Source: Marsupella aquatica (Eukaryota > Plantae > Marchantiophyta). From it: a stretch of DNA of 64,000 nt. The stretch is taken from the NCBI GenBank assembly GCA_973895155.1, contig OZ316899.1:15465974-15529973 (forward strand). The letters are read 5' to 3'. A program made the translations under genes and the position numbers. Positions 30,395-61,953 of the stretch are shown here, in pieces. Within the stretch, counting starts at the first letter, position 1. Every line of letters starts with the position of its first letter. The notes under the pieces are model-generated. The model searched no databases, was not told the origin of the DNA, and worked only from the letters and a program-made list of their open reading frames with translations.

Positions 30395-30570
30395 ATACAG
30401 AGGTTTACACCTCCACTACGTACATACCACCTCATTTCCTTTTTCTTGGCACTTGTAAATGTGATGAGACTTTTTCTATGCATGCTGGTTGCTAGCAGCT
30501 TGCACATATGCCTTGCCGGTGACTTGTATGTTTTCGATACTCTATGGCTTCGATACTATATGTCACGATA
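30395..30570 (+). repeat. Split direct repeat B1
   Basis: 176 bp, ~6 mismatches to 30931-31106. Confidence 0.95.
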
Positions 30571-30572
30571 GC

Positions 30573-30930: not shown

Positions 30931-31106
30931 ATACAGAGGTTTGCACCTCCACTACGTACATACCACCTCATTTGCTTTTTCTTGGCACTTGTAAATGTGA
31001 TGGGACTTTTTCTATGCATGCTGGTTGCTAGCAGCTTGCACATATGCCTTGCCGGTGACTTGTATGTTTTTGATACACTATGGCTTTGATACTATATGTC
31101 ACGATA
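30931..31106 (+). repeat. Split direct repeat B2
   Basis: Copy of 30395-30570; followed by TSD GGGT. Confidence 0.95.
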
Positions 31107-31131
31107 GGGTCATGTTACACCCAAGGGGGAG

Positions 31132-33060: not shown

Positions 33061-36000
33061 TGTGATGCCTAGCCAGGAATCATTAGGCCAGTTTAATTAG
33101 TAAAATCAGGAGTGTACCCTAGGAAACACCTTAGTATAGTAACAAAAATAGGGAAATATAAACAATTAAGGGTGACTATGGAACCCAAGCCCAGGCCAAA
33201 AGTAAGGATGCCGGGGGAAACACGATTAGGGTTAGGGCTCGCTAAGCACCGGCGGCTACTAACGGGAAGGAAGACCAGCCAAGGGGGGGGGGGTAAGGAC
33301 CGAGCGCAAGGACTGTCGGCTCATTTGCAAACACAAGCCAAGCGGACGACTACGGGAGGCCAACTGCTGTCCGCTGCTCAGGCAAGCACTCGGGGTGGAA
33401 GCAGATACCGACAATCAACTCAAGAGGGGTATGAGCAACGTCAATCAAGCTGCTCATTTTTGGGGATGCCTGTTAGAACGGGCAATTGAGTACATTGGGA
33501 CCTACCAGGACAAAGAATCAGAGAGAGCGGCTTGAGAACGGCAGGAACTCGCTCGGCTGTGGGAGCTGCATAAGTCTCCTTTCTTAGGAGGAAAACTCAT
33601 TACGGCTGAATTCTTGTAGACGCCTACTGCCGACAAACTCGACGATCTTCTGTTTTGTGAGAACAAGATAGTCGGCATCCGAGAGGCCATCAACCGCTGC
33701 AACGACATACACTGGGAGTTGAAGGGTAGCACGGAGGGGTGGACGAAGGCAACCGTGCTACGAGAAACATCCACGGCAGCCGCTATGAAGAGGAAAGGGA
33801 ACAACAATGAAGAAGCCACCCCTGCAAAAAGAACAAGGTTGGCGGCACCCAGGAAACCAACAGACCAGGGAAGCAGGAGGCAGGCGGAAGCCGAAGAGGA
33901 GGAGGTCGACCCCGTCAATGTCGTTCCGACAAGAGATGACACCTGGAAAGGCTGGGCGGCGACCCTCCCCAAGGAGGTGCAATTACACTTTGCGCGGGAA
34001 GAGGATGCATGCTTTATGGCTATGCAGACTTGGAAATACCAGGGCTTCATGGCCGGATCCGGCTTGGAAGCATTTGTAAAGTTACCATGGCTGAAGTCGG
34101 AGGTACCGGATTCAGACTTACTGGAATTCGTGGGATCATGGGAGCCCGAGACCAATTCCACAAGGGTGTATGGGAAGGATTTCTATCTCACTCCCCGGGT
34201 GATTGCCAAAGTGTTTGGCTTGCCGATGGGCAATAAGACCAAAGTAGATACCAGGAAGACCTTGCCAGACAAGGAGTTCCGGTCATTTCCAAGGCCATCA
34301 ACAAAGAATGGCTTCTTCCGAAACACCTGCACCAACCCACACATAGAGAAATGATTGATTTCTTGCGGGTGACCATGCATTGTAACTTGCCGAGGGCAGA
34401 GATCGGCAAGGCACAGGTCTATCTGGCAGAGAGGCCAGACCCAAGCCGAGACTACAACGGGTACCTCCTCACCCAACTAAAGAAGATCTTGAAGGAGGAA
34501 CAGCTGGTGATCGGCATGGGAAGCGTGTCCCGACTTGGTTATCACATGCCGCTGTTGTGCCGGTATGCCCACAGCCAGATATTCGCCTCGGTACTGCCCC
34601 TGCAGGCAAGAGCACCAGAGGAGGTTCCGGAACCAAGGCCGGCAACAGAGAAACCAACCCAGCTCGATAGTCCTACAATCGAGCAGGTGTTTAGGCCGAG
34701 GAAGGAGGACTTGCCGATGCAGCAACCAGGCATGCAAAATCTGCTGAAATTGTTGGAGAAGGAAAGGAGAACAGCAGCGGCAATGGGGCCAGTACAAAAT
34801 ACTACTTCCGAAGTTGGCCTTAGCAACTTACTAGGGAAAACCCCTTTATCGGGGCCAAGGAGAGAAGGAGGCCAGAACACGAGTCGGGAGTCCAAATGTA
34901 TGTAGGAGCTTCAAGTCCCGAAGCTGAGGAGAAGCAGCCCGAGGCCCCTGGTCACGACAGGGAGAAGATGAGATCAACGTGGAAGCTGGAGGAACCAGGA
35001 CCCATGATCTGTGGGGTTGTGTTCACGGCAGGACCAGGACAGCAGCGGGGGGAGCTGGTAGTCCAAGCCGAGGAGGAGGCGGTAGAAGGCTACGACAATG
35101 ATGACTCCGGCTACGGGTCGGACCATCATGTTCTAGGAATAAGGACCTGTGGCAGGTTCATCCCCACTCTTCCGAGAGTAGTTTGAGGCGACCCGACCCA
35201 GGAGAGCAGCCCCGAATCTCCCCCACCAGATGTCACTCCCTGGAGTTTTGACGGCATAAAACAGACGGCACAGGAGTTTCAAGAACAACGCAGGGAGGAA
35301 GAGGAGGCAGCCCTAGCAAGGGAGAAGGATTTACCAGGAGGAGAATGGCCAGAGGACATCCGGCGGCTTGCAAAAAATGAAGCAACCCGCCAGCCACGAT
35401 AGAAAGAAACTCGCAAGGCTGCCTGGGAACAAAGGCCACGGTGGATGATGCCAATGACTTCTGCTCACTCCGCCTATGCTAAAGAATGAGCCATGGAGTA
35501 CGGGAAGATGTGTGGGGAACTTGCGCTCGACATCTTTGGGGAGGAGTTGGAGCAGGGACCTTTTTTCCAGAGGGAAATGTTGGAGAAGCATCGATTAAAA
35601 GAAGCGGTGGCTTTGGAAAGAAGCAAGAAGGATGAGGTCATCCGTCGGCTTAGGGCAAGGAAAGCCGAGGTAGAAGACCTGAAGGCATCCAGGAAAGCCC
35701 AAGATGAGCTGCAGATTAAGTGGCATGAGCTCAACATCATGCAGGGGCAATTGGATATTGCGCAGTCTGATAATTAGATTATCAAGGATAAACTGACTCG
35801 GACCCAATGTGATTTGGCCAATTCAATCAAGGAGAAGGAGAAGTGGAAGCAAGAGCTGAGAGACGCAGAGGAGGCCCACATAGCAGCCAACAATCGGACC
35901 ATGGCGGAAACTCAGAGAAGGGAAAGGGCGCTGAAGGGGAAACTCTAGGATATCCGCGGAGCCCTTGAGCAGAAGGAGGACGAGTTAGGGAAATCCTATC

Positions 36001-36375
36001 AGGCAATTATCGTGCTGCCGCAGGAGCTCGCATCCATGATGGCCAGCTTCAAGGCCGATCTCCGTGAGAAAGACGATCAGCTCGACTAGACTTATGCCAA
36101 GATGAATAAAATGGAGTCTGAGGTCGTTATGGAGCTTGACAAGGAGCTGAGAGCAACCCAGGAGGAGAGGGCGACCTTAAAGAAGGAATTGGAGGAAGCC
36201 CAAAAGGAGCGGGAGGAGGCGTGCAAGGACCTGGATGAATTGCAGGAGGGGTTGGAGGAAAGCACGCGGAAGATGGAAAACTTACAGCGGCGAGCCGACA
36301 ACCAAACGGAGCGGCTGAAGAAATAGGCCGCAATATTTAAGTGCTTGGCTTCCTCAAGACCAACTCCAATTGAGG

Positions 36376-39300
36376 TGTGGTGCATCCCATGGCTCCCTAA
36401 ACCCAAGAAACCCCCAGCTCAAGCCGATTCCCGCAGGTTTCGCGCTTGGCGAGGCCGTTTCCGCGGCTTAGCGGCATGGGACGCTGCTAACCTTCTACTA
36501 CTACTATTAACATTTTACACACATATACTTGACAGATCCTTCATCGGGTCATGAGATACGTAGCCGGCCTAATCTAGGCCTTCCCCTGTCTTCCCCTCCG
36601 TCTTGTTAGGTATGTTTGGATTCCGCCGTCGGAATGATCCCCAATAGGCTTGGTTAAGCCGCTAAGACCTCTCTCAGCTCGACACATCCAACTCTCACTC
36701 CCCTGCTTACTTTCCTTCCTTCTGGTTGATGTGGGCACTCTTCACACAAGTTAATGCGACACACAAATAGCAAAATGACTCATTCTGACTGAGTCATACC
36801 ATGCACTTGCCATACAAACAGTACATCTCATACACAAGCTCTGCGAACTAAGCCGTGAGGCCAACTCTATTAAGCTCTTAGGCATGAGGAAACATGAATA
36901 TACACAAGGGTCACTGTATGACTAACCGAGAGCTTCTCGTACTACTTGATCCCAGCCCGGCTGGTGCAAACTAAAAACTTGCTAAAGAAGAGGCCCTGAG
37001 CTCCCCGCTGCCCAGGTACTTATCCTGGTAGTGGATCCGTCATTCTTTGCATCGTAAGCCTAATCTACCTAACAGTAATCTACTTGCCCGAATCTACCTA
37101 TGTACAGCAAGGCAGGAGCACAAGTGTTGCTCCTACCAGTGGAACCGCAATCCCACTAAGCTAAGTGTCAGGGCCGCTCCTGGTCCTGATCCTAATCCTA
37201 AACTTGGAGATCAGCGCCCGCCGTGCCCACTCACGCCTCCTCCCTCCACGTCCGCCCTCCCTAAAAGGAACGATGCCCTTGCACCGTCACGACACCTGTG
37301 GTGGATCCTTAATGGACGCCCCCAACGCTTCCTCCTCAGCCACTGCCGTAGGTTCATTCTCTGAAAGATTACTTGCCCTTGACTGAGTCAACTCTCCATC
37401 GGCCTGACTGGGTCCACCATCGGCGTCGACATCGGCTCGGGAATCGGTTACGGCCTCAGCCTCGGCTACGGTCTCCCTGGCCTGCTCAAGAGGCGGATCT
37501 GGGATACCGGCCTCATTACTGAGTAGTTCGGCTTGGGCCGCACCAACCCCACCTGTGATGATAGCGGGATCTATTGTCGTATTTATGTCGGAGGATGGTG
37601 CTGGTTCTACCTCCTTGGTCACCACGGCTTGTGGAGTCGGATTACTCCTTGACCCTGAAGGTTTCCGCTTCTTCTTCTTTTCTGGTTCGGCAACTGGTCC
37701 CTTCCCCTTCCCACTTACTTCCGGCACTGGTGCAGGTGGCGCGGCTTTTTCTTCGGCCTGTACCACTCCTGGTAACTTGGTTGCCCCAATTGGAGTTGGG
37801 CCTGATGAAGACAAGCACTTAAATACTGCGGCTTGTTTCTTCAGCCGCTCCATTTGGTTGTCGGCCCGCCGCTGGAGGTTCTCCATCTTCCTCGTGATTT
37901 CCTCCAACTCCTCCTGGGTCTCATCCAGGTCCTTGCGCGCCTCCTCTAGTTCCTTCTGGGCTTCCTCCCGTTCTTGTTTCAAGGTAGTCCTCTCCTCCCG
38001 GGTTGCTCTTAGCTCCTTGTCGAGCTCTGCAATGATGACAAACTCCATCTGGTTCATCTTGGCATAAGTCTGATCGAGTATCTCGTCCTTCTCCCTTAGG
38101 TCGGCCTTGAAGCTGGCCGTCAGGGACGCAAGCTCCTGGTGCAGCGCCATAATCCCTTGATAGGATTTCCCTAACTCGGCCTCCTTCTGCTCAAGGGCTC
38201 CGCGGATTTTCTCGAGCTCCCCCTTCAACGCCCATTCCTTTCTTTGGGTCTCCGCCATGGCCCGGCTGTTGGCTGTTATGTGGGCCTCCTCTGTATTCTT
38301 TAGCTCTCGCTTCCACTTCTCCCTCTCTTTGATCATGTCGGCCAACTCTCCCTGCGTCTGAGTCAGTTTATCCTTGATATTCTGATTATCAGCCTGCGCG
38401 GTGTCCAACTGCCCCTGCATGATGTTCAGCTCATGCCGTTTAATCCGCAGTTCATCTTGGGCTTTCTTGGCCGCCCTTAGATCTTCAATCTTGGCTTCCA
38501 TCCTCCTAAGCCGCCGAATGACCTCGTCCTTCTTGCTTCTCTCTAAAGCCACCGCTTCTTCTAATTGGTGCTTCTCCAACTGCTCCCTATGGAAAAAGGG
38601 TCCTACCTCCAACTCCTCTCCAAAGATGCCGAGCGCAAGTTCCCCACACATCTCACCATACTCCATGGCTCTATTCTTAGCGTAGGTGGAGTAAGTAGAA
38701 GTGATCGGCATCGCCCATCGCGGCCTCTGCTCCCAAGCCGTCTTGCGGATCTCTTCAATCGTGGCTAGAGGTTTGCTTCCTTTTTCGGCTAGCCGCCTGA
38801 TGTCCTCCGGCCAATCTCCTCCTGGTAAATCCTTTTCCCTAGCCAGGGCTGCCTCCTCTTCCTGCCTGATTCGCTCCTGAAATTCCTGCACCGTCTGTTT
38901 TATGCCGTCAAAGCTCGGGGGAGCAACATCTGGTGGGGGAGACTCAGGGCTACTCTGCTAGTTGGGGTCCCCTCGCACTACCCTTGGAAGTGTGGGGACA
39001 AACCGGCCACAGGTCCTTACTCCTGGAACGTGATGGTCCGACCCATAGCCGGAATTATCATGGCTGCAGTCCTCCACTGCCTCCTCTACTTCTTGGACGT
39101 CCGGCTTCTCCCTCTCCTCTTCGTCGGTAGGAGCTTCAGGCAATTCTGCCTCAGATTCGGAGCTTGAGATTCCCACATACATTCGAACACCTGGCTTGAT
39201 TCCGGCCTGATTCTCTCCTTGTCTCCAGCAAAGGGGTTTTCTCTTGTGAGCCGGTGTAGGCCTACCTCTGTAGTAGTGTCCTGCATTGTTGCTGTTGCCG

Positions 39301-41038
39301 TTGTTGTTGCCGATGCCGATCTCTTTTCTTTCTCCAGTAGTTTCAGCAGACTCTGCATGCCTGGTTGCTGCATCGGCAAGTCCTCCTTCCTGGGCCTAAA
39401 CACCTGCTCGATCGTAGGGCTAACAGGTGGTTGAGGCTTCTCAGCCAACGGCCTCGGCGTTGGAGCTTCCTCGGGTGCCCTTACCTGCAGGGGAAGTACT
39501 GGGGCAAAAGTTTGACCTCTGGCATACCGGCACAACAGCGGCATGTGATAGCCAAGCCGCGACACGGTCCCCATGCCAATTACCTGCTGCTCCTCCTTTA
39601 AGATCTTCTTCAATTGGTTGAGGAGGTACCCGTTGTAGTCCCGGCTTGGGTCTGGCCTCTCTGCCAGATAGACCTGTGCCTTGCCGATCTCTGCCCTCGG
39701 CAAGTTACAATGCATGGTCACCCGCAAGAAGTCGATCATCTCTCTCCTATGTGCGGGTTGGTGCAGGTGTTCCGGAAGAAGCCATTCTTCGTTGATGGCC
39801 CGGGGAACGACCGGAACTCCTTGTCAGGCAAGGTCTTCCTGGTATCAACTTTGGTCTTATTGCCTATCGGCAAGCCAAACACTTCGGCAATTACCTTGGG
39901 AGTAAGATAGAAATCCTTCCCATATATCCTCGTGCAATTGGTCTCGGGTTCCCATGACCCCACGAATTCTAATAGGTCTGACTCCGGTACCTCCGGCTTC
40001 AGCCATGGTAATCTTACAAAGGCCTCTAAGCCGGATCCGGCCATGAAGCCTTGGTACTTCTTGGTCTGCATGGCCGTAAAGCATGCATCCTCCTCCCGTG
40101 CAAAATGTAGTTGCACCTCCACCGGTAGGGTTGCCGCCCAGCCCTTCCAGGTGTCATCCCTGGTTGGAATGGCCTTGATGGGATCGACCTCCTCCTCTTC
40201 GGCTTCTCCCTGCCTCCTGCTCTGCTGCCCGACTGGCTTCTTTGGTGCCGCCGACCTCGTTCTTTTTGCCGGGGTGGCTTCATCGTTGACGGCTCCCTTC
40301 CTCTTCATCTCTGCTGCCGTGGAGGTTTCTCCTAGCACCGTTGCCTGGGTCCACCTTTCCGTGCTACCCTTTAATTCCTAGTGTATGTCATTGCAGTTCT
40401 TGATGGCCTCTCGGATGCCGACGACGCTGTCTTTGCAAAACAGAAGATCGTCGAGTTGATTGGAAGTAGGCGTCCACAGGAACTCGTCCTTGATGAGTTC
40501 GCCTCCTAAGAAAGCCGTCTTCTGCAGCTCCCACAATCGAGCGAGCTCCTGCCGTTCTCGAGCTACCCTTTCTGATTCCTCGTCCTCGTAAGTCTTGATG
40601 TACTTAGTTGCCCGTTCGAACAGGCATCCCCAGAAATGTGCCGCTTGATTGACGTTGCTCATACCCTCCTTAGGTCGATCGTCAGTATCTACTCTCTCCC
40701 CGAGTGCTTGCCTAAGCAGCTGATAGTAGTTGGCCTCCAGTAGTCGTCTGCCTAGTTCGTGCTCGCAAATGAGCCACCATCTCCTCCAAGCGCTCCTTAC
40801 CCCTCTCCTCTGCCGGTCCTTCTTCCCGTTGATCCTTCCTAGCCGCCGATGCTTAACGCGCCCTAACCCTAATCGAGTTTTCACCCTCAGTGTCCTTACC
40901 TCCGGCCTCGGCCCGGGTTCCATGGTTGCCCCTAATTGTTTATATTTTCCTTGTTTTGTCCCTATACTAAGGTGTTCCTAGGGTGCCTTCCTGGTTTACC
41001 CACTTAACTGGCCGAGTGATTCCTGTCTAGGCATCACA
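36376..41038 (-). mobile_element. Giant solo LTR, family A copy 3 (4663 bp)
   Basis: Inverted orientation; perfect TSD TGAGG (36371-36375 and 41039-41043); same termini. Confidence 0.95.
37287..40923 (-). pseudogene. LTR-encoded ORF of A3 (~1200 codons, few lesions)
   Basis: Pieces 40378-40923, 39736-40338, 39086-39739, 38958-39182 and 37287-38891 (534-aa coiled coil). Confidence 0.85.
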
Positions 41039-42436
41039 TGAGGCAACCAAGTTACCTGGTGTAGTACTGGCCAAAGGACAAGCCGAGACACTTGCACCGG
41101 TGCCGGAGGTAAGTGGCAAGGGGAAGGGGCCAGCTGCCGAACCAAAGAAGAAGAAGAAGAAGCGGAAACCTTCTGGGTCAGGGAGTAATACGGCTCCTCA
41201 AGCCATCGTGACCAAGGAGGTAAACCCAACACCAACCTCAGGCAGGGTCATGGTAGAGGATCCAACTGCCCTAGAAGGCGGGGATGATGAAGCCGGGGCC
41301 AGGATACTCGGTGATGAAGCCGGGGTACCGGATCCATCACTAGAACATGTCGGGGAGGCCGTGGCCGATGCTGAGGCCGAAGCCGAGGGTGGACCCAGTC
41401 AAGCCGATGGAGAGTTGACTCGGTCAGGAGCAGGTAATCTGTCAGAGGACGGACCTACAGTAGTGGCTGCGGAGGAAGTGTTGGGGGCGTCCATTGAGGA
41501 CCAGACACCGCTGCCATGATGGTGGTGGAGGGCCGCTCCTTTTAAGGAGGGCGGGCGTGGAGGGAGGAGGCGTGAGTGGGCAGGGCGGGCTCAGATCTCC
41601 AAGTTTAGAATCAGGACCAGGACCAAGGGGCGGCCCTGACACTTAGCTTAGTGGGATTGCAGATCCACTGGTAAGAGCAGCACTTATGCTCCTGCTTCGC
41701 TGTACATAGGTAGATTACAGTTAGGTAGATTACAGTAGGGTAGATTAGGCTTACGCTGCAAGGAATTAGGCGGATCCACTACTAGGATAAGTACCTGGGC
41801 ATCGGGGAGTTGAGGGCCTTCTTCCTTAGCAAGTTTTTAGTGCACCTGCAGGGCTAGGATCAAGTAGTTAAAGAAGCTCTTGGTTAGTTATACTGTGACC
41901 CTTGTGTATATTCATGTTTCCTCATACCTAAGAAATTAATAGAGTTGGCCTCACGGCTTAGTTCACAGATCTTGTATACTGTTTGTATGGCAAGTGCATG
42001 GTATAACTCAGTCAGAAGGAGTCATTTTGCTATTTGTGTGTCGCATTAACTTGTTTGAAGATTGCCCACATCAACCAAGAAGGGAGTAAGCAAGGTAGTA
42101 AGAGTTGGATGTGTCGAGCTGAGAGAGGTCTTAGCGGCTTACCCAAGCCAGTTGGGGATCATTCCGGCGACGGAATCCAAACATACCTAAAGGAAACCCG
42201 AGAGAGGAGGACAAGGGAAGGTCGAGAATAGGCCGGCTACGTATCTCATGACCCGATGAAGGATCTATCCAGTATATGTGAGTAAAACGTTAATAGCAAT
42301 AGTAGTAGAAGGAAGTTAGCAGCGTCCGATGCCGCTAAGCCGCGAAATCGGCCTCGCCAAGAGCGAAACCTACGGGAATCGGCTTGAGCAGAGGGGTTTC
42401 TTGGGTTTAGGGAGCCATGGGACGCACCACATTGAT

Positions 42437-43060: not shown

Positions 43061-43590
43061 TGTGATATAGCAGTTATTCAGAATTTCTGTGAAAACTTTA
43101 AAATTTTCAACTTTTTGAGATAAGTAGTGATTCGCCTCAGGTTATCTATATTAATTAGGAGCATTAGAGTAGTTAAGCCATCCTCAAGTACATCCCTGTA
43201 GTCTCCTAAAACTAGTTACTTTTACAGCCATGTCAAATCGGAGTCACAGTAGCAGCTAATCCGCTAAGACGCTCCAATGCGTAGGCGCTTATGCGCTAAT
43301 GCGTTCAGACGCGTATAGCAACCCACCCTGCCGGAAACCAAAAGTAGTCGTTGATGATGAGGAGGAAGTAATAGAGTGACTCACTAGACCACCTGCTTGC
43401 GACAAATATTTTCACTTCCCTGTTTGCTACCAAAGGCCTCGACGTTCACGCCCATACGCAGAGATGCTTGAGCGCTGTGGCATTTATACGCTCATGCGCG
43501 ATCACGCCAATACGCCCCGTCGTTTTGCGACTTAGATTTTTGTAAGTGACTCAACTTCAAGAACCATAGCTGCAACTTGCCATAGCGGGC

Positions 43591-44730: not shown

Positions 44731-44752
44731 ACATCGAGAATCCCACACTATC

Positions 44753-50663: not shown

Positions 50664-53600
50664 TCCTCCCCCAGTAAACTTGAGCAGCCTCCGGTCTGCT
50701 CCAATCGATCAGATTTCCTTTAAGTTTGAGTCGGAACTCAAGCCATGCGCCTGGACCACTTCCTCCTCAAGAAACTCAAACCCAAAGCCTTTAGACTTGG
50801 CCTTAGGCACTCCACTTTCTAGAAACTCAAAGTCCAACTCATCCAAACCAGAACCAGTCAAGCCACTTTCGAAACTCAAGTCCAATGGATGCGCCTGGAC
50901 CAGTGCCTCGTCTTCAAATTCACTCAAGTTGGAACTTGAGTCCATTTCATCTCTAGTTCGCACCTTGCAAACCTTCACTCTCTCCCGTATGTCAATGACT
51001 CGATAGTCAATCCGATCAAGCTCTTGAATCTGCCTCTTCAAGTTGTGATGGATCCCTCAATTGTCAGCATACTCCTGAACATCCCAATACAAATCTGGCC
51101 ACCAATACTCCTTTTGGATCTGCTCATAGACCTTCGCCCTTATTCCTTTCAAACCACCTTTGACCTCAGCATCATAGACTTCCTCCAAAATCCGCTTTTG
51201 CTCATCCTTAGAATTGACAACTCTCCTCGGTACTAGCATGGGCCCCTTAGGTTTCCACCAAAGGTAGCCCCTCTCTAAGAATGAACTTATCAGAATTCAC
51301 TCGAATGTCTTCGAACGTTTTACCATCCTGCTTCAGCCGCTTCGCAAAGTCACTCAGATACTTCCCAATGTCTAGTAGCTCTCCTGAGTAACACTCTTCC
51401 TTGAACACTAGGCTCCCCATCTTTTGGTCCGCAATTGGCTCCCCTTTGAACTTTGTACTTAGATCCATCTTAGCATCTTGGTTCTCCCCCATAGCAATGC
51501 CAACTTCTGCCGCTGTTGGATCTCGCAGCTGCTTTCAGTTCCTCTCATTTCCAGGTAGAACCGCCAGAAACTGAACCACCTCCTTATCATCTTTGCCCCG
51601 TGTGATGCCTAACCAGGAATCACTAGGCCGGTTAAGTGGGAAAAAGGAAGTGTACCCTAGAAATACCTTAGTATAGTTACAAGAATGAGGAAAATATAAA
51701 CAATTAAGGGTGACTATGGAACCCGGGCCGAGGCCGGAAGTAAGGACGTCGGGGGAGAGAATACGATTAGGGTTAGGGCGCACTAAGTGTCGGCGGCTAG
51801 GGGTAACCAACGATAGGGAAGACCAGAGGAGGAGAGGGGTAAGGACAGCTCGCGAGGAATGGTGGCTCATTTGCAAGCACGAACTGGGCAGACGACTACG
51901 GGAGGCCAACTACTGTCAGCTGCTTAGACAAGCACTCTGGGCGGGAGCAGATACCAACGAACAACTCAAGGAGGGTATGAGCAACGTCAATCAAGTGGCA
52001 CATTTTTGGGGATGCCTGTTCGAACGGGCAACTGAGTACATTGGGACTTACAAGGACAAAGAATTGGAGAGAGCAGCTCGAGAATGGCAGGAGCTCGCTT
52101 GACTGTGGGAGCTGCAGAAATCTGCCTTCTTAGGAGGAGAATTCATCAAGGCCGAGTTCTTGTGGACTCCTACTGCCAATCAGCTTGACAACCTTCTGTT
52201 TTGCGAAAACAGGATTGTCGGCATTTGAGAAGCCATCAACCGCTGCAACGACATACACTGGGAGTTGAAGGGTAGCACGGAGGGGTGGACAAAGGCAACC
52301 GTGCTAGGAGAAACATCCACAATAGCCGAGATGAAGAGGAAAGGAAACAACAACGAAGAGGCCACCCCGACAAAAAGAACGAGGTCGGTGGCACCAAGGA
52401 AGCCAGCAGAGCAGGGAAGCAGGAGGCAGGCGGAAGCCGAAGAGGAGGAGGTCAATCCCATCAATGCCATTCCAACAAAGGATGACACCTAGAAAGGCTG
52501 GGCGGCGACCCTACCAGAAGAAGTGCAACTGCATTTTGCACGGGAGGAGGATGCATGCTTTACGACCATGCAGACCAAGAAGTACCAGGGCTTCATGGCC
52601 GGATCCGGCTTGGAAGCCTTCGTAAAATTACCATGGCTGAAGCCGGAGGTGCCGGATTCAGACTTATTAGAATTCGTGGGATCATGGGAGCCCGAGACCA
52701 ATTCCACAAGGGTGTATGGGAAGGATTTCTATCTCACTCCCCGGGTGATTGCCAAAGTGTTTGGCTTGCCGATGGGCAATAAGACCAAAGTAGATACCAG
52801 GAAGACCTTGCCAGACAAGGAGTTTTGGTCGTTTCCAGGGCCATCAACAAAGAATGGCTTCTTTCGAAATACCTGCACCAACCCACACATAGGAGAAATG
52901 ATCGATTTCTTGCGGGTGACCATGCATTGTAACTTGCCGAGGGCAAAGATCGGCAAGGCACAGGTCTATCTGGCGGAGAGGCCAGACCCAAGCCGAGACT
53001 ACAATGGGTACCTCCTCACCCAACTAAAGAAGATCTTGAAGGAGGAACAGCTGGTGATCGGCATGGGAAGCGTGTCCCGGCTTGGCTATCACATGCCGCT
53101 GTTGTGCTGGTATGCCAGAAGTCAGATCTTTGCCCCAATACTTCCCCTGCAGGCGAGGGCACCAGAGGAAGTCCCGGAGCAGAGGCCGGCAACAGAGGAG
53201 CCCAACCAGCCCGCCAGTCCTATGATCGAGCAGATGTTTCAGCCAAGAAAAGAAGACTTGCCGATGCAGCAATCAGGCATGCAGAATCTGCTGAAATTGC
53301 TGGAAAAGGAGAAGAGAACGGCACCGGCAACGACAACGGCACCGGCACCGGTACAGGACACTGCCCCAGAGGTCGGCCTAAGCCGACTCAGGAGGGAAAA
53401 CCCCTTTATCGGAGCCAAGGTGAGTAGGAGGCCAAAACACGAGTTGGGAGTTCGAATGTATGTGGGAGCCTCCAGCCCTGAATTGGAGGCAAAGCAACCT
53501 AAGGCTCCTGCCCGCGGAAAGCAGAGGGAGAAGACAACTTGGAACCCAGAGGAGGAACCAGGGCCCGTGATCTGTGAGGCCGTTTTTACGGCGGGACCAG

Positions 53601-54979
53601 GAGAACAGAGGGGGAAGCCGGGAGTCCAAGCAGTGGAGGAGGCGGTGGAGGACTACAGCAATGATAACTCCGGCTATGGGTCGGATCATCATGTACCAGG
53701 AGTAAGAACCTGTGGCCGCTTTATCCCCACGCTTCCAAGAGTAGTTCGAGGGGATCCCACCCAACAGAGCAGCCCCGAGTCCCCCCCCACCAGATGTCGC
53801 TCCCCCAAGATTTGACGGCATAAAGCAGACGGCACAAGAGTTTCAAGAGCAACTCAGAGAGGAAGAGAAGGCAGCCTTGGCTAGGGAGAAAGATTTACTA
53901 GGAGGAGATTGGCCAGAGGACATCAGGCGGCTTGCCAAAAAAAGAAGCAACCCTCTTGCCACCATAGAAGAAATCCGCAGGGCGGCTTGGGAACAGAGAC
54001 CGAGGTGGTTGATGTCGATGACTTCTACTTACTCCACCTATGCTAAAGATGGAGCCATGGAGTACGGGGAGATGTGTGGGGAACTTGCGCTCAGCATCTT
54101 TGGGGAGGAGTTGGAGCAGGGACCCTTTTTCCAGAGGGAGATATTGGAGAAGCACCAATTAGAAGAAGCAGTGGCTTTGGAGAGAAGCAAGAAGGACGAG
54201 GTCATCTGGCGGCTTAGGGAGATGGAAGCCGAGGTGGAAGACCTAAAGGCAGCCAAGAAAGCCCAAGATGAGCTACGGATTAAACGGCATGAGCTAAACA
54301 TCGTGCAGGGGCAGTTGGATACCGCGTAGTCTGATAATCAGATTATCAAGGATAAACTGATTCAGACCCAAGGAGAGTTGGCCGAGGCGGTCAAAGAAAG
54401 GGAGAAGTGGAAACGAGAGCTGAGAGACGTAGAGGAGGCCCACATAGCAGCAAACAACCGGGCCATGGCAGAGACTCAGAGAAGGGAGAGGGCGTTGAAG
54501 GAGGAACTCGAGGATATCCGCGGAGCTCTAGAGCAGAAGGAAGCCAAGTTAGGAAAATCCTATCAAGGGATTATTATGCTACAAGAGGAGCTTGCTTCCC
54601 TGACAGCCAGCTTCAAGGCCGACCTCCGTGAGAAAGACGACCAGCTCAACCAGACTTATGCCAAGATGAATAAAATGGAGTTTGATGTCATGACAGAGCT
54701 CGACGAGGAGCTAAGAGCAACCCAGGAGGAGAGGGCTACCTTAAAGAAAGAGTTGGAAGAAGCCCAAAAAGAGTTGGAAGAAGCCCAGAAGGAGCTGAAG
54801 GAGGCAAGGAAGGACCTGGACAAAACCCAGGAGGAGTTGGAAGAAACCACAAGGAAGATGGAGAACTTACAGCGGCGGGCCGACAACCAAACGGAGCGGC
54901 TGAAGAAACACGCCGCAGTATTTAAGTGCTTAGCTTCATCTATTCCAACTCCAATTGTGGGAACCCCGTTACCAGGAGT

Positions 54980-57572
54980 CACTAGTAGAAATACCCCCTA
55001 TTTTTGACCATAAAATACGACTGACTATGACTAAAACCGGTCATCTATGACATTAAATCACTGACGTCGTTCTTGCAACTAGTAGTTGTAAAAGTGGTGA
55101 CTTGGATTGACTTAGTCATATTATTGACTAGTGTCAATAGTCTTTTTAGTGACTAGAGACTCAAGTATTTAGATCTATACATCAGTCAAACATAACTGTT
55201 TAGAATGACTTAGTTCGAGTCATATAGGGTTTTCCATGAGTGATTGGTAACACTGATTTGACCGCACTAGTTTCCGTAGACAATGATGTCATTCATATTC
55301 GAGACTGAGTCATTCATGCCACAAAAGCACCAATCCAACTAACAATGGCATAATAACAGAGTAAAAATATGAGCAATCCATCAAAAAATAGAGTATACTT
55401 GAGGATTGAGAGAGAGAGAATTTTGTGGCAGAGAAGATGATGGTGAGCAAAGACAAACAAACAGAGTACTGACAAAGTGGAGAGAGACACACGGACGGAG
55501 AGAGAGCAAGGAGAGAATTAAGCAAGGAGAAAATTCTGCTCAGTGTTGAAGTAGTCAAACCAAAGCTGGTACAGACGTGCGAGAAGACCCAGGACTCTAA
55601 GATTGGACACTCGATTGCTAATCCTGAAAGATTGTGTAGAATAAAAGTGGACAATTGTTGGGCTAGCATTTTCATAGTTGAATAAAGGAATTCACAAGTC
55701 AAAGAACCCAATAGAACTTAGTTGTAGAGTAGCATATTGAAGCAAACATGCGAGTCTACGAGCAGCAAATTAAAATATTGGCAATGGTAGCACAAACGCC
55801 CGACCTTGAGACCACCAGTGAAGACAAAGCAATGACAATGCAGAGGGCTCTGAGTGATTGCAGACCTCAGGAGTTGAGAAACCCTGGAATGATTTCTTTG
55901 TGCCTAGCTTGGCAAAAGAGAAAGCTCTCGAACGGGTGGAAAATTGATCTGCGAGTGCCACAGACAGAGTGTGGCTCATCAATTCTGTGGCTCATCCGTT
56001 GTCCATGGAGGAGTACATTATAGAGTATCACATTTGACTAATGTCCTGTACATGGAATACAGGACCGTTGAGTTGAAATCGCAGCTCAGCAAAGGCAAAG
56101 AAAAACCCCCTGCACCCCACCTTAGTTCTGCACAACACTTCCGCACACTAGAATACTAGTGTATAAGGATGGTGGGGATTCAAGCTTCACAGCCAAAGCA
56201 GAATGAAAGTGCCGACAATATACTTTGATCTACATTTCCATAGTGAAATCCAAGTTTGACCCCGGCCCCGACCTCAGATTGCTATAGTGATGGGCGTGCA
56301 TAAGAGAGGGAGAGATTTTGTACGTACTTGAGGATCGCGAGTGAGAAAAATCTGCAGGAGAGAGGACAATGGAGAGCGGAGACGATGGACGAGCAAGACC
56401 GAGAGAGAGGTCGAGAGAGAGCGAGGAGAGAATTGAGCAAGAGAGGAAACCCTGTAGAACTCAAGGAACCCAGTAGAACTTAGCCCTACCGTAGCATATC
56501 AAAGAGAAAGAAAGCAAGGCAATAGCAGCAATCAAACCCTACCGAGAGACGGAGATGACCAGCACCGCAGCTCAACTTTGTAGAGGTGTTGGATGACTAC
56601 CATGACCACAGCAAGGCTTCGCGCAAGGCAAAGAGTAAGTCTAGGGCGCATTTGCGCATTCTCACTTTCTATCGAGAGCAAGTATTGTGATAGCAGACAT
56701 GCAAAGCTCCATTCCAATGCTGCGCATGGCAAAGTCAGAGGTAAGTACTTACAAAGCAGATGGCGGAAGACAGACCCCCACACCACAAACTTATGCTCCG
56801 ACCCTAAAATAACTGACCGCAATGCCCCCGCAATGCCTTCGGGGAGCACTCACTCTTGCACTTAGCACTCGACTGAAAATCGCTGCCATTGCGCTTCAAG
56901 TGTGGTCCTAAACACTTCCGCCTTCCTAAAAGCTCTAGTAAGAGTGGTAGCGAGAAGAAATCCCGACACACTCCTCATTCGCTCCTCCTCCCTCCTTGAT
57001 CAATCGACTATCGACTATCGATAGTCACCTCATTCGCTCCTCCTCCCCTCCCCTCCCCTCGCTAAACCCTCTCTGCGGACGAAGACCTTAAACTTTCGCT
57101 CCCGCGCACAAGGGTGGAGAGTACTAATGTACTCAGCCAGTGACATGTAAGGGAGCCAGTTACATGCAAGGGGCTGATGTAAAGGAGCCAATGACATGTA
57201 AGGGGCTGATGTAAAGGAGCCAATGACATGTAAGGGAGCCAGTGACATGCAAGGGGCTCATGTAAAGGAGCCAGTGATATTTAAGGGGCTCACCTAATGG
57301 GGTACCTCTACTATTTGAGACTTTCTCACATTAAAAGCTTGAATGTTTGGCAATTGGTGATTAGCACTCACTCACATAAGTACTTAGCACTAAGACATTT
57401 GGCTTGGATAGGGGACCTGCCATTTTCCTTATGAAGGAGTCGCAACAAATGAGTGGATAGTTTGTAGAAGTGATACTTAAGACATATGTAGTGATAACTC
57501 CCTAAACTTCCATAACCTTGTCACATTAGTCAATAGTGGTTTGGTCAAAAATAGGGGGTATTTCTACTAGTG
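54980..57572. mobile_element. Non-autonomous CACTA (En/Spm) DNA transposon, 2593 bp
   Basis: 31-bp TIR CACTAGTAGAAATACCCCCTATTTTTGACCA; 3-bp TSD AGT; no transposase ORF. Confidence 0.95.
57134..57290. repeat. Tandem AGCCA(A/G)TGACATGTAAGG(G) minisatellite inside CACTA
   Basis: Directly visible degenerate units of about 19 and 13 bp. Confidence 0.8.
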
Positions 57573-58950
57573 AGTGGTACTGGCAGAAGGACAAGCCGAG
57601 CCACACGCCCTGATGCCAAAGGTAAGTGGCAAAGGGAAGGGACCAGCTGCCGAAATAGGGAAGAAGAAGAAGCGGAAACCTTCTGGGAGTCCAGCCGTTG
57701 TGACCAAGGAGGTAAACCCGACACCAACCTCCGGCATGGTCACGACAATGGATCCACCTGTCAAGGAAGGTGGGGATGGCAAGACCGAGGCCGGGACAAC
57801 TATTGATGAAGCCGTGGTAGCAAACCCACCACTAGAGCCAGTCGAGGAAACCATAGCCGGGGAGGCCGTGGCCGATACTGATGCCGAAGCCGAGGGTGGA
57901 CCCAGTCAGGCCAATGAAGAGTTGACTCGGTCCGGGGTAGGTAATCTGTCAGAGGAAGGACCAACAGCAATGGCTGCGGGGGAAGCGTTGGGGGCGTCCA
58001 TTGAGGATCCACCACCGGTGTCGTGACGGTGCAAGGGCGCCGTTCCTTTTAGGAAGGGCGGACGTGGAGGTAGGAGGCGTGAGTGGGCAGGGCGGGCTCA
58101 GATCTCCAAGTTTAGGCTTAGGATCAGGACCAGGAGACGGCCTTGACACTTAGATTAGTGGGATTGCGGATCCACTGGTAGGAGCAACACTTGTGCTCCT
58201 GCCTCGCTGTACTTAGGTAGATTATAGTTAGGTAGATTACAGGTAGGATAGATTAAGCTTACGCTGCTAAGAATTGGCGGATCCACTTCTAGGATAAGTA
58301 CCTGGGCAGCGAGGAGTCCAGGGCCTCTTCCTTAGCAAGTTTTTAGTTGCACCAACAGGGCTGGGATCAAGTAGTAAGAGAAGCTCTCGGTTAGTTATAC
58401 AGTGACCCTTGTGTATATTCATGTTTCCTCACGCCTAAGAGCTTAATAGAGTTGGCCTCACGGCTAAGTTCGCAGAACTTGTGTATGAGATGTACTGTTT
58501 GTATGGCAAGTGCATGGTATAACTCAGTGAGAAGGAGTCATTTTGCTATTTGTGTGTCGCATTAACTTGTGTGAAGAGTGCCCACATCAACTAATAGATG
58601 AAGGGAAGTAAGCAAGGGAGTGAGAGTTGGATGTGTTGAGCTGAGAGAGGTCTTAGCGGCTTAACCAAGCCAATTGGGGATCATTCCGGCGGCGGAATCC
58701 AAATATACCTAAAGAAAAGGAGGGGAATACAAGGGAAGGCCTAGATTAGGCCGACTACGTATCTCATGACCCGATGAAGGATCTGTCCAGTATATGTGTG
58801 TAAAATGTTAATAGTAGTAGTAGAAGGAAGTTAGCAGCGTCCCATGCCGCTAAGCCGCAGAAACGGCCTCGCCGAGGACGAAACCTGCGGGAATCGACCT
58901 GCGCAGGGGGGTTTCTTGGGTTTGGGGAGCCATGGGATGCACCACATTTT

Positions 58951-58969
58951 TGGCGCTAGATGGAGGGGG
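58951..58969 (+). promoter_or_regulatory. PBS (TGGCGCTAGATGGAGGGGG)
   Basis: TGG-initiated, 4 nt after the LTR end; resembles Tat-group PBS as I recall it. The tRNA is not assigned. Confidence 0.7.
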
Positions 58970-59015: not shown

Positions 59016-59921
59016 ATGGCTGAACCTACGCCAAGGGAAGAAAGAGCGATTCAATAGGAGAGAGCTCGTTTGCAGCAGCTCGCCGGGTGGCATGATACAC
59101 AGCAATTGAGAGGGGCAGAAAGAGCTAGTAGCTCCGTAACTAAAAGTGGCATCGAAGAAGACATACCAGAAGAGGAGTCGGCAAGGAGAAGTGAGTCTCC
59201 AACCGACATGGGGGAACCAGAGGCACGGTCAGACAAGAGGCCAGGGACCAGACTGAGCCAACGGTCACGCATTCATTACAAGGCCTTTCATGGAAGACGA
59301 GATGAGGATCCGGACAAATGGTTGGATGACTTCGAAGGAACCGCTGCAGCAAATGGAGAATCGGCCATCAAGATGCAAATTCTTCCCGGCCTGTTGAAGG
59401 GTGAGGCTAGACCTTGGTACAGAGCATTGGACGTGGAAGATCAAGGCATCTGGAATACTTTCAGATCACTATTTGTCAAAGAGTTTCAACCCATTGGAAC
59501 TTCAGAGTTAGCAGTGCTGAAGTTGGGACGACTTCGATTCAAGGAGAACAAATCCTTCAGGAAGTTCTTGCAACGCTTCCAAAAGCTGGTAAGACATACA
59601 AAGACCAATGCATCTGAAGGTATGAAACTTCAATGGTTAGTGAATGCTTTGCCACAGAAGATGAGTTTTACAATTAGGAAGGAGAACCCAGAGACTTTAG
59701 CCAAGGCAATTAGAGATATTCAATTATACATTAATGCAGATATCACAAGCCGGAAGAAACAGCTTAAGTCTGAGAGTTCCTCATCGGAGGAAGGATCAAC
59801 CCATAAGAAAAAAGATAAGAAAAAGAAACATTCTAAGAAGTCAAGAAGTGATAACTCAAGCTCGGATAGTGGAAGTAGCAAGAGTGAGTCATCTTCTAGT
59901 TCTGAAGAAGAAGAAAACTAG
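59016..59921 (+). CDS. gag: Family A Gag (capsid-like), one early stop
   Basis: FHGRRDEDPDKWLDDFE, LKGEARPWY, WNTFRSLFVKEF. Confidence 0.85.
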
Positions 59922-61953
59922 GAAAAAGAAGGGCAGAAGGAGGGGGAAGTTGAAAGTCAAGCTAGAGGCTAAAACACCAGATAACATCGTAGCCCTTACC
60001 AAGCAGCTTAAGGCTATAATACCAGAGGTGAAACCAAAGAAGAAGGTAGTACAGGAGGATAGCTCTGTATGGTGTGCCCTATGTTATAAAACCGGACACC
60101 ATAAGGATGCATGTCCTAAACTCAATACCAGTCATGTTTGGCATGTAGCTGAGGTCAGACCATGTCAGGGAGAAGTAGAGTACTTCCTAGGAGATGCCGC
60201 TATTAGTGTTTTCGGCATCAGTGAGACTGGAGCACAAGACCTATCCAACAGACCTGCATCTCTCTGGTCAGGATTAAGGAATAATCCGGGAGAGATGTAT
60301 CCTCGAATTATTCAAAATCCGTCAGTACCTCCTAGGCCGAATGTGCAAAGATTTGCGGCATGCTATAATTGTGGTCAACCTGGCCATTTTGCTAGAGAAT
60401 GCCCGAATGCACGCAAACAAGGTGATGGACAACCAGCTCAGCTATGTATGGGATACCGACAAGAGGGTCACATGCTAGGACAATGTCCTACTTGGTTGGC
60501 AGGCCTGGCCGCAAATCATAAGCTCTTGCCGGTCAAGGTCTTGCCGCCAGGTACTACCCCCGAAGGAGTTCAAATCAACCACATCGAACTTGGATGGCAA
60601 ACGGATGCCAAGGCAGAGTTTGGACCATCTGATGATGAGGCCGAGGCCCTATCAACCTTCTTAGAAGAGGATTTGGATCATGATTGCTACCGGGTCTCTA
60701 CTCAATCTACCAGAAGGAAGGAAAGGTGGGATGGGCTGGCCAAAAATAAAGGGAAGGTTAAGGAAGAAAAGATCGACTCTTTGTCAACATCAACGGAAGG
60801 AGAAGGAAGGGCGCCGGCAACACAGGTAAGCCATGAGCCCACCAGTGAGCCCAATCCTTCACAGGACAGCGACTTTAATCGAGATCACCCTAAGTTGTTC
60901 TACCCCTCTATTACGGCTAGTGTTAAGGAACAACTGCGAGAATTAGAAACCCTCGAGAATACCGAAGCCATAGCCAAGGATGTGAAACGAGCAAAAGCGT
61001 TGTTTGCTTCGGAAGATCCAATGGCTGTGGAAACCAGCGTGAAAAAGCAGGTAGAAGCCAAGATGGAGACACCGCTAGAAGAGAAGCCGATAGTTCCCTA
61101 TGACCTGGCTAAAGATGTGCTAGAATCTAGAGTCTCGGCAATAGTAGGTCAACTATTGAAAAATAGCCCGTACTTCCGGAAGCAGTTAAGAAAGGCGATT
61201 CTCGGCAAGCCGAGATTACCCAAGGTAGCAACCAAATCCGACGTGCTGATGATAGAAGAAGATCAAGGAGCCCCAACATTACCATTAATGATTCAAGGAG
61301 AAATAGTACTGCGAGTACCCATTGATGGAGGATCAGGGGTATGTATTATGATTGATTCAACAACAAAAGGATGGGGTCTAACGCCGGAGATGACTGGAAG
61401 AGTGTTAAACATGGCCAATGGGTATCAAGTCATTCCCACGGGAGTGTTAACCGGCATCAAGACGGAGATAAGAGGCATCTTCTTTAGCATTAACTATGTA
61501 GTAATGAAGCCGGTAAACCCTACGTCGTTTAGGCTATTAATTGGCAGGCCATGGCTGTACCTAGCCAAGGTAATAGACGATTGGGGTAAGAAGGAGTTCA
61601 CTTTTGGGACCTCAGCTATTACGGTATCCTGGGACACCAAAGATGACCGCAGGAAAAGCATCAAGGAGATAGATGGGTACGATAGTGGACTGGAGTCAGT
61701 CGATGAGGTACGTTGGCTAGAATGCCTCACTGACCTAACCGAAGAAAGTGTCTTTGGACCAGAAGTACCCCCCAGCGGATTATGGCAAGAACCTATGGAA
61801 AGTGACTTGGAGGAAGGTGAAGAAGAGGTCGAGGATTGCTTTACCATAGAATCCACCTTTTTAGCTTCAATCCCGGAGGAAGCACAAGAGCTGGACCAGT
61901 TGGGTGAAACGGCTAAGTGGGGAGCTGCAGCAGGGACCGTGGATTTTCCTTAG
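59734..61953 (+). CDS. gag-pol: Family A Gag zinc knuckles + aspartic protease
   Basis: CALCYKTGHHKDAC, CYNCGQPGHFAREC, PIDGGSGV...LLIGRPWL. Confidence 0.85.
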   Translation: MQISQAGRNSLSLRVPHRRKDQPIRKKIRKRNILRSQEVITQARIVEVARVSHLLVLKKKKTRKKKGRRRGKLKVKLEAKTPDNIVALTKQLKAIIPEVKPKKKVVQEDSSVWCALCYKTGHHKDACPKLNTSHVWHVAEVRPCQGEVEYFLGDAAISVFGISETGAQDLSNRPASLWSGLRNNPGEMYPRIIQNPSVPPRPNVQRFAACYNCGQPGHFARECPNARKQGDGQPAQLCMGYRQEGHMLGQCPTWLAGLAANHKLLPVKVLPPGTTPEGVQINHIELGWQTDAKAEFGPSDDEAEALSTFLEEDLDHDCYRVSTQSTRRKERWDGLAKNKGKVKEEKIDSLSTSTEGEGRAPATQVSHEPTSEPNPSQDSDFNRDHPKLFYPSITASVKEQLRELETLENTEAIAKDVKRAKALFASEDPMAVETSVKKQVEAKMETPLEEKPIVPYDLAKDVLESRVSAIVGQLLKNSPYFRKQLRKAILGKPRLPKVATKSDVLMIEEDQGAPTLPLMIQGEIVLRVPIDGGSGVCIMIDSTTKGWGLTPEMTGRVLNMANGYQVIPTGVLTGIKTEIRGIFFSINYVVMKPVNPTSFRLLIGRPWLYLAKVIDDWGKKEFTFGTSAITVSWDTKDDRRKSIKEIDGYDSGLESVDEVRWLECLTDLTEESVFGPEVPPSGLWQEPMESDLEEGEEEVEDCFTIESTFLASIPEEAQELDQLGETAKWGAAAGTVDFP

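Follow-up and report, generated by a model that had tools for sequence, protein, structure and literature searches.

Four copies of a 4.7-kb LTR

The 64-kb stretch of Marsupella aquatica DNA analysed here (the window) holds four copies of a 4.7-kb unit, detected by self-BLAST and 71–96% identical to each other in 300-column windows, each containing one decayed open reading frame (ORF) (Table 1). All complete unit ends are TGTGATGC and GCACCACA, that is, TG...CA with a short inverted repeat. Copy 3 is flanked by a perfect TSD (TGAGG, 5/5, at 36371–36375 and 41039–41043). The TSD of copy 2 (TTGAC/TTGAT) matches at four of five positions, and its host site is the RT of another gypsy element, which continues across the insertion. 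Copy 1 has no PBS downstream and is thus a solo or 3′ LTR, whereas a PBS and gag lie behind copy 4. The inverted-repeat element that interrupts copy 4 is CACTA-ended and spans approximately 54980–57572. Contig cover over copy 4 begins at 51598–51601 in all four sequencing runs. In the same four runs, summed contig depth is higher for the LTR than for gag-protease, depth not being equal to copy number.

Table 1 Features of the window and of the full-length relative (last row, in coordinates of its own locus)
Feature	Positions	Strand	Remarks
Copy 1	<1-4269	+	5′ end cut by window edge; self-BLAST
Copy 2	33061-42431	+	solo LTR, pieces 33061-36375 and 41044-42431, interrupted by copy 3
Copy 3	36376..41038	-	solo LTR, 4,663 bp, ends TGTGATGC...GCACCACA, nested in copy 2
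5′ leader, copy 3	40660..41038	-	without codon signal
LTR gene, copy 3	37287..40659	-	1,122 codons from likely true ATG
N-terminal helical domain	40371..40659	-	~95 aa; matches no known family
Globular core domain	39510..40146	-	~210 aa; dN/dS 0.11-0.18; predicted VANC21/PMD-like fold
Long coiled-coil region	37800..38670	-	~290 aa constrained; dN/dS 0.19-0.37
Basic patch and acidic tail	37290..37799	-	weakly constrained; dN/dS 0.59-0.90
3′ non-coding part of LTR	36376..37286	-	~910 bp; conservation above synonymous sites
Copy 4	51601..58946	+	5′ LTR of truncated element; interrupted by 2.6-kb inverted-repeat element
LTR gene, copy 4	51980-58026	+	split by CACTA-ended insertion
PBS after copy 4	58951..58967	+	complementary to tRNA-Asn(GTT) 3′ end, one mismatch
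gag-zinc knuckle-protease	59016..61953	+	same element as copy 4; one stop, one frameshift
L002 5′ LTR (Calypogeia fissa)	9016 to ~14148		5.1 kb; contains ORF 9992-12445

Because TG...CA ends and 5-bp TSDs bound the unit and PBS and gag follow copy 4, the 4.7-kb units are true LTRs; an earlier reading made from the sequence alone (the sequence-only reading) had argued this on the same grounds, all of which are borne out. It is very improbable that the unit is instead mobile in its own right, or consists of internal sequence joined to a short LTR, with copy 4 lying before the PBS by chance. That view could draw on the window having no complete element of this family and on the internal region of copy 4 ending before any RT. 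However, the TG...CA ends and TSDs enclose the whole unit, no internal direct repeats that might be short LTRs occur in it, and a purine tract lies immediately upstream of the LTR 5′ end on one X1 contig (the tract's sequence does not occur a second time within the window). It is largely refuted by a full-length relative, described below, in which PBS and layout are the same.

A long gene under purifying selection

All four copies share a terminal stop, at codon 1238 counting from an ATG at +116. They carry 6, 9, 2 and 4 premature stops, respectively, and are dead. In copy 3, the damage comprises stops near 40379 and 38959, frameshifts near 39750 and 39200, and 84 bp missing in frame. Two premature stop sites are common to two copies and none to all four, so the original statement that stops lie at different sites in each copy was nearly right.

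The +116 ATG is rejected as the start: codons 1–88 counted from it have no third-position excess, codons 1–50 give dN/dS values of 0.73–1.02, and full-length homologues start at the second ATG. Given this codon signal and these homologue starts, the gene most likely begins at approximately +380 (40659 in copy 3), which gives a length of 1,122–1,143 codons and fills about 72% of the LTR. The sequence-only reading had correctly recognized one long sense ORF per LTR; its start at about 115 bp, its length of about 1,200 codons and its cover of about 78% are replaced by these values. The order of parts that it described (N-terminal helical region, globular domain, coiled coil and acidic tail) holds, with the parts mapped from 40371–40659 through 37290–37799. 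The N-terminal domain, for which Atlas scores are 0.80 or lower, is also present in homologues P0031, P0032, P0024, P0006/P0067 and P0074. The coiled-coil region has weak matches to several coiled-coil Pfam families, all below cut-offs, and the basic patch that follows (KKKKRK) is presumably NLS-like.

The leader contains a putative promoter, the sole TATAAA common to all copies with that end (40939–40944), as well as an upstream ATG at 40923 and two conserved GTAAG donor-like sites. A scan of the 3′ non-coding part of the LTR for TATA-like patterns gave no site.

Across the whole gene, dN/dS is 0.23–0.30 at kappa 1 and 0.31–0.40 at kappa 3 (bootstrap upper bounds 0.38–0.50) in all six pairs of copies, which are related to each other and not independent samples. 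Four other frames, as controls, give 0.78–1.77; the antisense frame with common third positions gives 0.41–0.43, but has 24–28 stops. The LTR ORF was under purifying selection, as had been suggested from the often synonymous differences between copies, and the values lie far from the dN/dS near 1 that had been named as contrary to it.

A full-length relative in Calypogeia fissa

The relative, at locus L002 of C. fissa, has a PBS identical to that of copy 4, a gag 40.6% identical to the gag behind copy 4, and then protease, RT-RH-INT and a PPT. Its second LTR, which begins at 20413 and runs past the locus end, is 96.5% identical to the first over the 1,494 bp covered and repeats the ORF start at 21376. 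The integrase ends about 85 bp before this LTR, with no internal extra ORF between the two. The first LTR is without a clean terminal CA. A PPT directly before the LTR is seen both in L002 and on the one contig of the window family. In L002, therefore, two LTRs flank gag-pol in one element, with the gene start in both. The sequence-only reading had called for full elements with both LTRs and had regarded short LTRs, with the gene block present once, as the contrary case; the relative has long LTRs. Its further proposal, that the gene is doubled in each element and survives solo-LTR formation, holds in its second part for copies 2 and 3 and in its first part for the C. fissa relative, the internal region of copy 4 giving way to unrelated sequence at about 62330.

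The homologue family comprises 63 proteins at E ≤ 0.001. Among 20 clusters looked up, nine have C. fissa members and one has a member from Riccia sorocarpa, and the full-length homologues keep the order of N-terminal helical domain, core and coiled coil. At a further C. fissa locus (L001, that of P0016), neither paired LTRs nor informative context was found. Word-index protein searches with the core domain (near and longer lengths) and with gag (longer lengths) found nothing, and the similarity of the window ORF at 43570–44730 to the core domain is not significant (E 1.3).

Predicted fold of the core domain

A model of the core built from copy 4 (52493–53152) reached a pLDDT of 91.4 and a pTM of 0.88; an earlier fold from five sequences was unusable (pLDDT 35). 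Structure prediction and Foldseek, which had been proposed as a check, placed VANC21 first (E-value 1.4, TM 0.49). A structural comparison gave Z 8.5 (rmsd 4.3, 199 aligned). Among 48,161 PDB chains, VANC21 was also the only one at Z ≥ 5 (Z 8.1, rmsd 4.5, 202 aligned), the next reaching 2.1. The core of the LTR protein is thus predicted to fold like VANC21/PMD, at a sequence identity to VANC21 of 10–11%.

Sequence comparisons gave little beside this. Pfam has no family for the N-terminal two-thirds of the protein; PF10536 (plant mobile domain) is above cut-off in none of seven window pieces and none of 40 homologues, and neither it nor PF09331 matches any of these. Two of the 40 homologues match PF20167 weakly (E 0.006, below cut-off). 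PDB sequence searches with the LTR protein gave no match. PMD and DUF1985 clusters in the Atlas, at 0.88–0.89, are leads only, with no Pfam or PDB sequence match alongside. In a viral fold library nothing reached E ≤ 0.001, the best match being an unnamed entry (E 0.016, TM 0.30). VANC and PMD domains are described as structurally alike (bioRxiv 2024.09.27.615353; PMC13547354), and host PMD proteins of similar fold as acting in silencing or against Polycomb (bioRxiv 2024.09.27.615353).

Candidate target motifs

VANC21 is described as binding dense, family-specific short motifs (PMC5735166), and the LTRs contain candidates that resemble such targets. In the C. fissa LTR, GCGCTTA occurs 22 times against 1.2 expected; 21 of the 22 sites are outside the ORF, clustered in the first 460 bp and the 3′ non-coding part. 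In the window family, CGGCTT occurs 16–19 times per LTR against about 4 expected and, when the four LTR copies are taken together, ranks first among 1,219 hexamers. Per kb, the LTRs have 3.4–4.5 sites and the cognate internal part has 1.8, compared with 0.17 in the other 42 kb. Each family is nearly without the motif of the other, and CGGCTT sites turn over between the window copies. Unlike VANC21 targets, most CGGCTT sites are inside the ORF (13–16, against 3.7–4.8 when synonymous codons are shuffled; at most 1 of 1,000), and 2–4 per copy are in the 3′ non-coding part, where no k-mer exceeds the shuffle maximum when that part is taken alone.

The CGGCTT enrichment is weaker than the C. fissa GCGCTTA array and partly context: an order-3 model lowers it to a −log10 p of 2.5–3.6, a different hexamer attains 6.3 in one of 11 control segments, and CGGCTT also weakly tops the L001 locus. 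The CpG of CGGCTT is kept in all copies at 12 of 19 sites, compared with 27 of 63 other GCCG sites, a difference that is not significant (p 0.19). CpG depletion in the ORF copies (0.58–0.69) is on a par with that in a copia element nearby (0.58), and the window copies therefore show no lasting protection.

A proposed anti-silencing protein encoded by an LTR

The element is likely Athila-like, as judged by TSD, PBS and domain layout. In the reference classification, Athila is a non-chromovirus/OTA lineage of Ty3/gypsy with Athila ORF-1 (PF03078) as its extra ORF and with a PBS matching tRNA-Asp, -Asn or -Ala (REXdb, PMC6317226). Shared with it are the 5-bp TSD, a tRNA-Asn-type PBS (12% of Athila), the gag-PROT-RT-RH-INT order of L002, with one RH and without aRH or chromodomain, and a large accessory ORF combining a globular domain and a coiled coil. 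The accessory ORFs of plant gypsy elements are described as lying in the internal region (PMC7264820; PMC6317226), and one between pol and the 3′ LTR as common, not universal, in Athila (PMC6317226). Here, by contrast, the accessory gene lies wholly in the LTR, L002 has no extra ORF between pol and the 3′ LTR, and the window protein core has no Pfam match.

On balance, and by a narrow measure of confidence, we favour the hypothesis that this Athila-like Ty3/gypsy element carries, in its LTR, the gene for a sequence-specific protein that counters its silencing: since the core has a VANC21-like predicted fold, the protein likely binds a short motif characteristic of its family and protects the family's copies from silencing. 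The gene may originally have lain between pol and the 3′ LTR, like the extra ORF of Athila elements, and would have entered the LTR once plus-strand priming shifted to a purine tract upstream of the gene. Transcription would start from a promoter within 130 bp of the LTR 5′ end, which would make a solo LTR a complete transcription unit. The protein would enter the nucleus, oligomerise via its coiled coil and bind CGGCTT in the window family or GCGCTTA in C. fissa, and binding would act in trans to reduce DNA methylation, or silencing marks of another kind, on any family copy. A common fold by itself shows no function.

One close comparison is VANC21 itself, from VANDAL21 Mutator-like DNA transposons (PDB 9lnj/9lnk; PMC5735166), which would share with the LTR protein the core fold (Z 8.1–8.5 over about 200 residues), a coiled coil and an enrichment of the element in short motifs specific to its family. 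It differs in its low sequence identity, in the placement of the window-family motifs mostly in the ORF, and in that the LTR protein is encoded by a retrotransposon inside an LTR rather than by a VANDAL/Mutator DNA transposon. Because of this location in a Ty3/gypsy LTR, we suggest that the protein works like a VANC, not that it is one. PMD-A of Ogre/Tat gypsy elements (PF10536) and host MAIN/MAIL (PMC5418596) offer another parallel, a gypsy accessory ORF with a PMD fold akin to VANC, but the LTR protein has neither a PF10536 nor a PF09331 match and its gene sits in the LTR.

Two other functions deserve consideration. The DNA-binding protein might act on the LTR promoter, as an activator of transcription or by opposing Polycomb, in the manner of MAIL/PMD proteins or retroviral transactivators, and not as a demethylating factor of VANC type. 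PMD-C proteins, of the same fold, are described as countering H3K27me3 at short motifs in promoters (bioRxiv 2024.09.27.615353), and the acidic tail, the two C. fissa motif clusters and the want of CpG protection in the window copies would all suit such a role. We nevertheless consider it unlikely: different motifs in two related families, together with site turnover, fit the arms race described for VANC (PMC5735166), and sites throughout the ORF suit a promoter factor less well. Also improbable, in our estimate, is a service to particle or integration (coiled-coil scaffold, nuclear import or chromatin tethering), a role that has been guessed at for the 'env-like' ORFs of Athila, with the motifs being compositional or host-factor sites. 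The long constrained coiled coil speaks for it, as do the pentamers predicted to form through coiled coils in Athila-domain proteins (PMC13547354), the partly context-driven motif evidence of the window family, and the position of copy 3 inside copy 2, which is compatible with self-targeted integration. However, a coiled coil is predicted to mediate oligomerisation of VANC as well (PMC13547354), the sole structural match is a DNA-bound anti-silencing domain, and the C. fissa motif array is far above composition.

Implications for LTR organization

We propose more tentatively, as somewhat less probable than its opposite, that promoter, VANC-like gene and family-specific DNA target are packed together in this liverwort Athila-like LTR. 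If so, each solo LTR would stay both source and target of the anti-silencing protein, although solo-LTR formation is normally the host's way to delete such elements. Retrotransposons would then have their first VANC-type system, within the literature searched, and PMD/Athila-type accessory ORFs of gypsy elements would be older members of the VANC fold. The role of plant gypsy extra ORFs is unsettled in reviews; a predicted DNA-binding fold, paired with a candidate motif that is not the same in two related families, opens it to direct testing.

MMTV sag, HIV nef and foamy virus bet overlap U3, and Cassandra is described as having 5S rRNA-related sequence in plant LTRs. These, too, are functional LTR cargoes, doubled per replication and left in solo LTRs, but they are short, partial or non-coding, whereas here a protein gene of more than 1,100 codons fills most of a plant LTR. 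In the literature searched, in which subscription papers were thinly covered, we found no protein gene inside a plant LTR. With this layout, the working assumption of non-coding plant LTRs no longer holds, and solo-LTR formation would leave the gene in place. Such elements would be missed or mislabelled by LTR finders that allow only short lengths, or by annotators who ignore ORFs in LTRs.

A selected gene within the LTR

Self-comparison of the window yielded one 4.7-kb unit in four copies, with the termini TGTGATGC and GCACCACA. Copy 3 is flanked by the target-site duplication (TSD) TGAGG and copy 2 by TTGAC/TTGAT, and the reverse transcriptase (RT) interrupted by copy 2 continues in reading across the insertion. 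Directly 3′ of copy 4 lie four T and a primer-binding site (PBS), then gag, a zinc knuckle and protease; the PBS can pair at all positions but one with a tRNA 3′ end, which belongs to tRNA-Asn(GTT) in 108 of the 120 metagenome loci carrying a PBS-matching tRNA 3′ end. No internal direct repeat able to act as a short LTR pair was found within the unit. Contig coverage in four public runs begins at 51598-51601, and among the loose contig ends listed, one contig of the public run X1 has a purine tract immediately upstream of the 5′ end. The sequence-only reading of four LTR copies is borne out by the ends, the TSDs of copies 2 and 3 and the PBS and gag that follow copy 4.

Features of the window
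Feature	Position	Strand	Remarks
LTR copy 1	1-4269	+	cut off by window edge
LTR copy 2	33061-42431	+	interrupted by copy 3
LTR copy 3	36376-41038	-	
LTR copy 4	51601-58946	+	interrupted by 2.6-kb element
CACTA-ended element	54980-57572		inside copy 4; 32-bp inverted ends, apparent 3-bp TSD
Distant family member	48020-49900	+	starts TGTAAG; TATAAAA at ~+113, then broken ORF
Two long ORFs	43570-46042	+	386 and 445 aa, no Pfam match
Athila/Tat-type PBS	47515		end of long AT-rich stretch
Gypsy element	22375-31114	+	integrase plus PHD finger
Split direct repeats of gypsy element	22375-22732/30573-30930 and 30395-30579/30931-31114		
DUF7869-containing ORF pair	4766-7532	+	
Unclassified ORF	62885-64000	-	
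Decayed Ty1/copia element	8750-13255	+	
Decayed Ty1/copia element	17934-21569	+	

The four-copy alignment holds a single frame with one common stop in all copies. Premature stops (6, 9, 2 and 4 per copy) had been taken to lie at different sites in each copy; none is indeed common to all four, but two sites are each shared by two copies. Whole-frame dN/dS lies below 1 in all six pairs, at 0.23-0.30 with kappa 1 and 0.31-0.40 with kappa 3 (bootstrap upper bounds 0.38-0.50), in agreement with the purifying selection proposed earlier. By region, the ratio is 0.11-0.18 for the globular core, 0.13-0.23 for codons 641-800 (a second block), 0.19-0.37 for the coiled coil and 0.59-0.90 for the acidic tail. 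It is 0.63-1.36 for pseudo-codons downstream of the stop and 0.78-1.77 for four other frames; the antisense frame with the same third positions has 0.41-0.43 and contains 24-28 stops.

Because codons 1-88 show no third-position excess, copy 2 has small indels within them and full-length homologues start where the second ATG lies, the gene most likely begins ~380 bp from the LTR 5′ end and has 1,122-1,143 codons; the ORF first described thus stands, with its start moved from ~115 bp. A TATA-like hexamer at +98 is the sole one common to all copies covering the region (3 of 3) and suggests a promoter nearby; conserved GTAAG sites lie downstream at +143 and +244. The LTR 3′ non-coding part (36376-37286 and equivalents) differs by 7-13% between copies, compared with a gene dS of 0.24-0.53, which reflects either strong non-coding constraint or recombination. 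The CACTA-ended element contains no long ORF.

A full-length relative

Word-index searches found no relatives; searching 1.84 billion representatives with a profile returned 63 proteins at E ≤ 0.001. Among 20 clusters looked up, named members came from Calypogeia fissa in 9 and from Riccia sorocarpa in 1, so a liverwort is the likely host. Two C. fissa loci were fetched: L001, with an uninformative context, and L002, a full-length element. The first LTR of L002 starts TGTGAGGC at 9016, is without a clean terminal CA and carries the homologous ORF (9992-12445), which a single stop interrupts. Its PBS (14151) is the same as that of copy 4, to which its gag and gag-protease are 40.6% and 31.9% identical; pol comprises RT, RH and integrase, a second RNase H and a chromodomain not being found, and ~85 bp separate integrase from the polypurine tract. 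The second LTR, from 20413, is 96.5% identical over 1,494 bp, the remainder lying beyond the locus end, and the ORF start recurs in it at 21376. The LTR therefore holds a selected gene that occurs twice in a full-length relative and persists in solo LTRs; both had been anticipated, and the doubling, for which full elements with both LTRs had been proposed as a check, is seen in a related family (over 1,494 bp of the second LTR), the solo LTRs in the window.

By TSD, PBS and domain content, rather than by phylogeny, the element fits Athila as tabulated in REXdb (PMC6317226). The distant family member has the layout of the LTR gene, and within its broken ORF 49197-49745 shares 29% identity with the core domain (E 1e-21); neither a 3′ end nor a TSD was found for it.

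Genes within LTRs have precedents in retroviruses, and Cassandra carries a 5S-related sequence in its LTR. Passages of reviews place plant accessory ORFs in the internal region (PMC7264820; PMC11963269; PMC6317226), and a literature search of limited coverage found no description of a protein-coding gene within the LTR of a plant element. The parts are of known kinds; the arrangement appears to be new.

Predicted fold of the core

A core model built from 58 sequences (a 5-sequence version was unusable) had pLDDT 91.4 and pTM 0.88. Foldseek, proposed earlier as a check, ranked VANC21-DNA (9lnj) first, albeit weakly (E 1.4, TM 0.49), the remaining matches listed having TM 0.18 or less; VANC21 is the anti-silencing protein of VANDAL21 transposons. 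VIA-align superposed the two over 199 residues (Z 8.5, rmsd 4.3), and in a wide search VANC21 was the sole chain of 48,161 at Z of at least 5 (Z 8.1, rmsd 4.5, 202 residues; next 2.1). The core is thus predicted to be VANC-like. Pfam gave no named family for the window protein core, and PF20167 was matched below cut-off by 2 of 40 homologues. The VANC domain has been linked structurally to the plant mobile domain (PMD) of MAIN/MAIL (PMC13547354; bioRxiv 2024.09.27.615353), and PMD-A is encoded by gypsy elements (PMC5418596).

Motifs

VANC21 binds a short motif that is densely packed in the non-coding sequence of its own family, whereas sister families have few sites (PMC5735166). The C. fissa LTR contains 22 GCGCTTA sites where 1.2 would be expected; 12 precede the ORF, 9 follow it and 1 lies inside. 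In an unbiased ranking of 1,219 hexamers, CGGCTT came first in the window family, with 16-19 sites per copy against ~4 expected. Its density per kb is 3.4-4.5 for the LTRs, 1.8 for the cognate internal part and 0.17 for the other 42 kb. Synonymous shuffling of the ORF yielded 3.7-4.8 sites, compared with 13-16 observed, and sites are gained and lost between copies. CGGCTT occurs once in the C. fissa LTR, and GCGCTT 0, 0, 2 and 0 times in the four copies. The enrichment of CGGCTT is weaker under an order-3 model, a hexamer about as strong turns up in 1 of 11 control segments, and the LTR 3′ non-coding part alone gives no signal above shuffles. CpG retention in CGGCTT is not significantly above that at other GCCG sites (p 0.19), and the copies are as CpG-depleted as a neighbouring copia element. 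We rate the motif evidence as strong in C. fissa and moderate in the window family.

AAGCCG/CGGCTT is also, weakly, the top hexamer around the C. fissa homologue at L001 8000-13000 (8 versus 2.1), as a shared motif or a compositional effect. AAGCGC, the C. fissa motif core, is enriched in gag-pol of L002 (14150-20412; 14 versus 2.6), so the motif marks the element as a whole.

Proposed mechanism and alternatives

We hypothesize that an Athila-type 3′ extra ORF was captured into the LTR by a shifted plus-strand priming site; in L002 no extra ORF lies in the internal region. Transcription would start within 130 bp of the LTR 5′ end, so that solo LTRs would be complete genes. The protein would be nuclear and oligomeric, with motif-directed binding, and would relieve silencing in trans. 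Beside this reading of a VANC-like core and a dense motif, the protein could act as a promoter-level activator or against Polycomb, which we consider unlikely, and a role in the particle or in integration seems to us improbable. That the unit, with its TSDs and the PBS and gag behind copy 4, is not an LTR at all is very hard to credit.

Other features of the window

The ORFs at 43570-46042, which have no significant similarity to the core domain, possibly form another gene-bearing LTR together with the AT-rich stretch downstream. Part of the gypsy element (~27250-27390) resembles a DNA-methyltransferase motif I. The DUF7869-containing pair and the unclassified ORF probably derive from DNA transposons, and the two copia elements are ~64-66% alike in pol.
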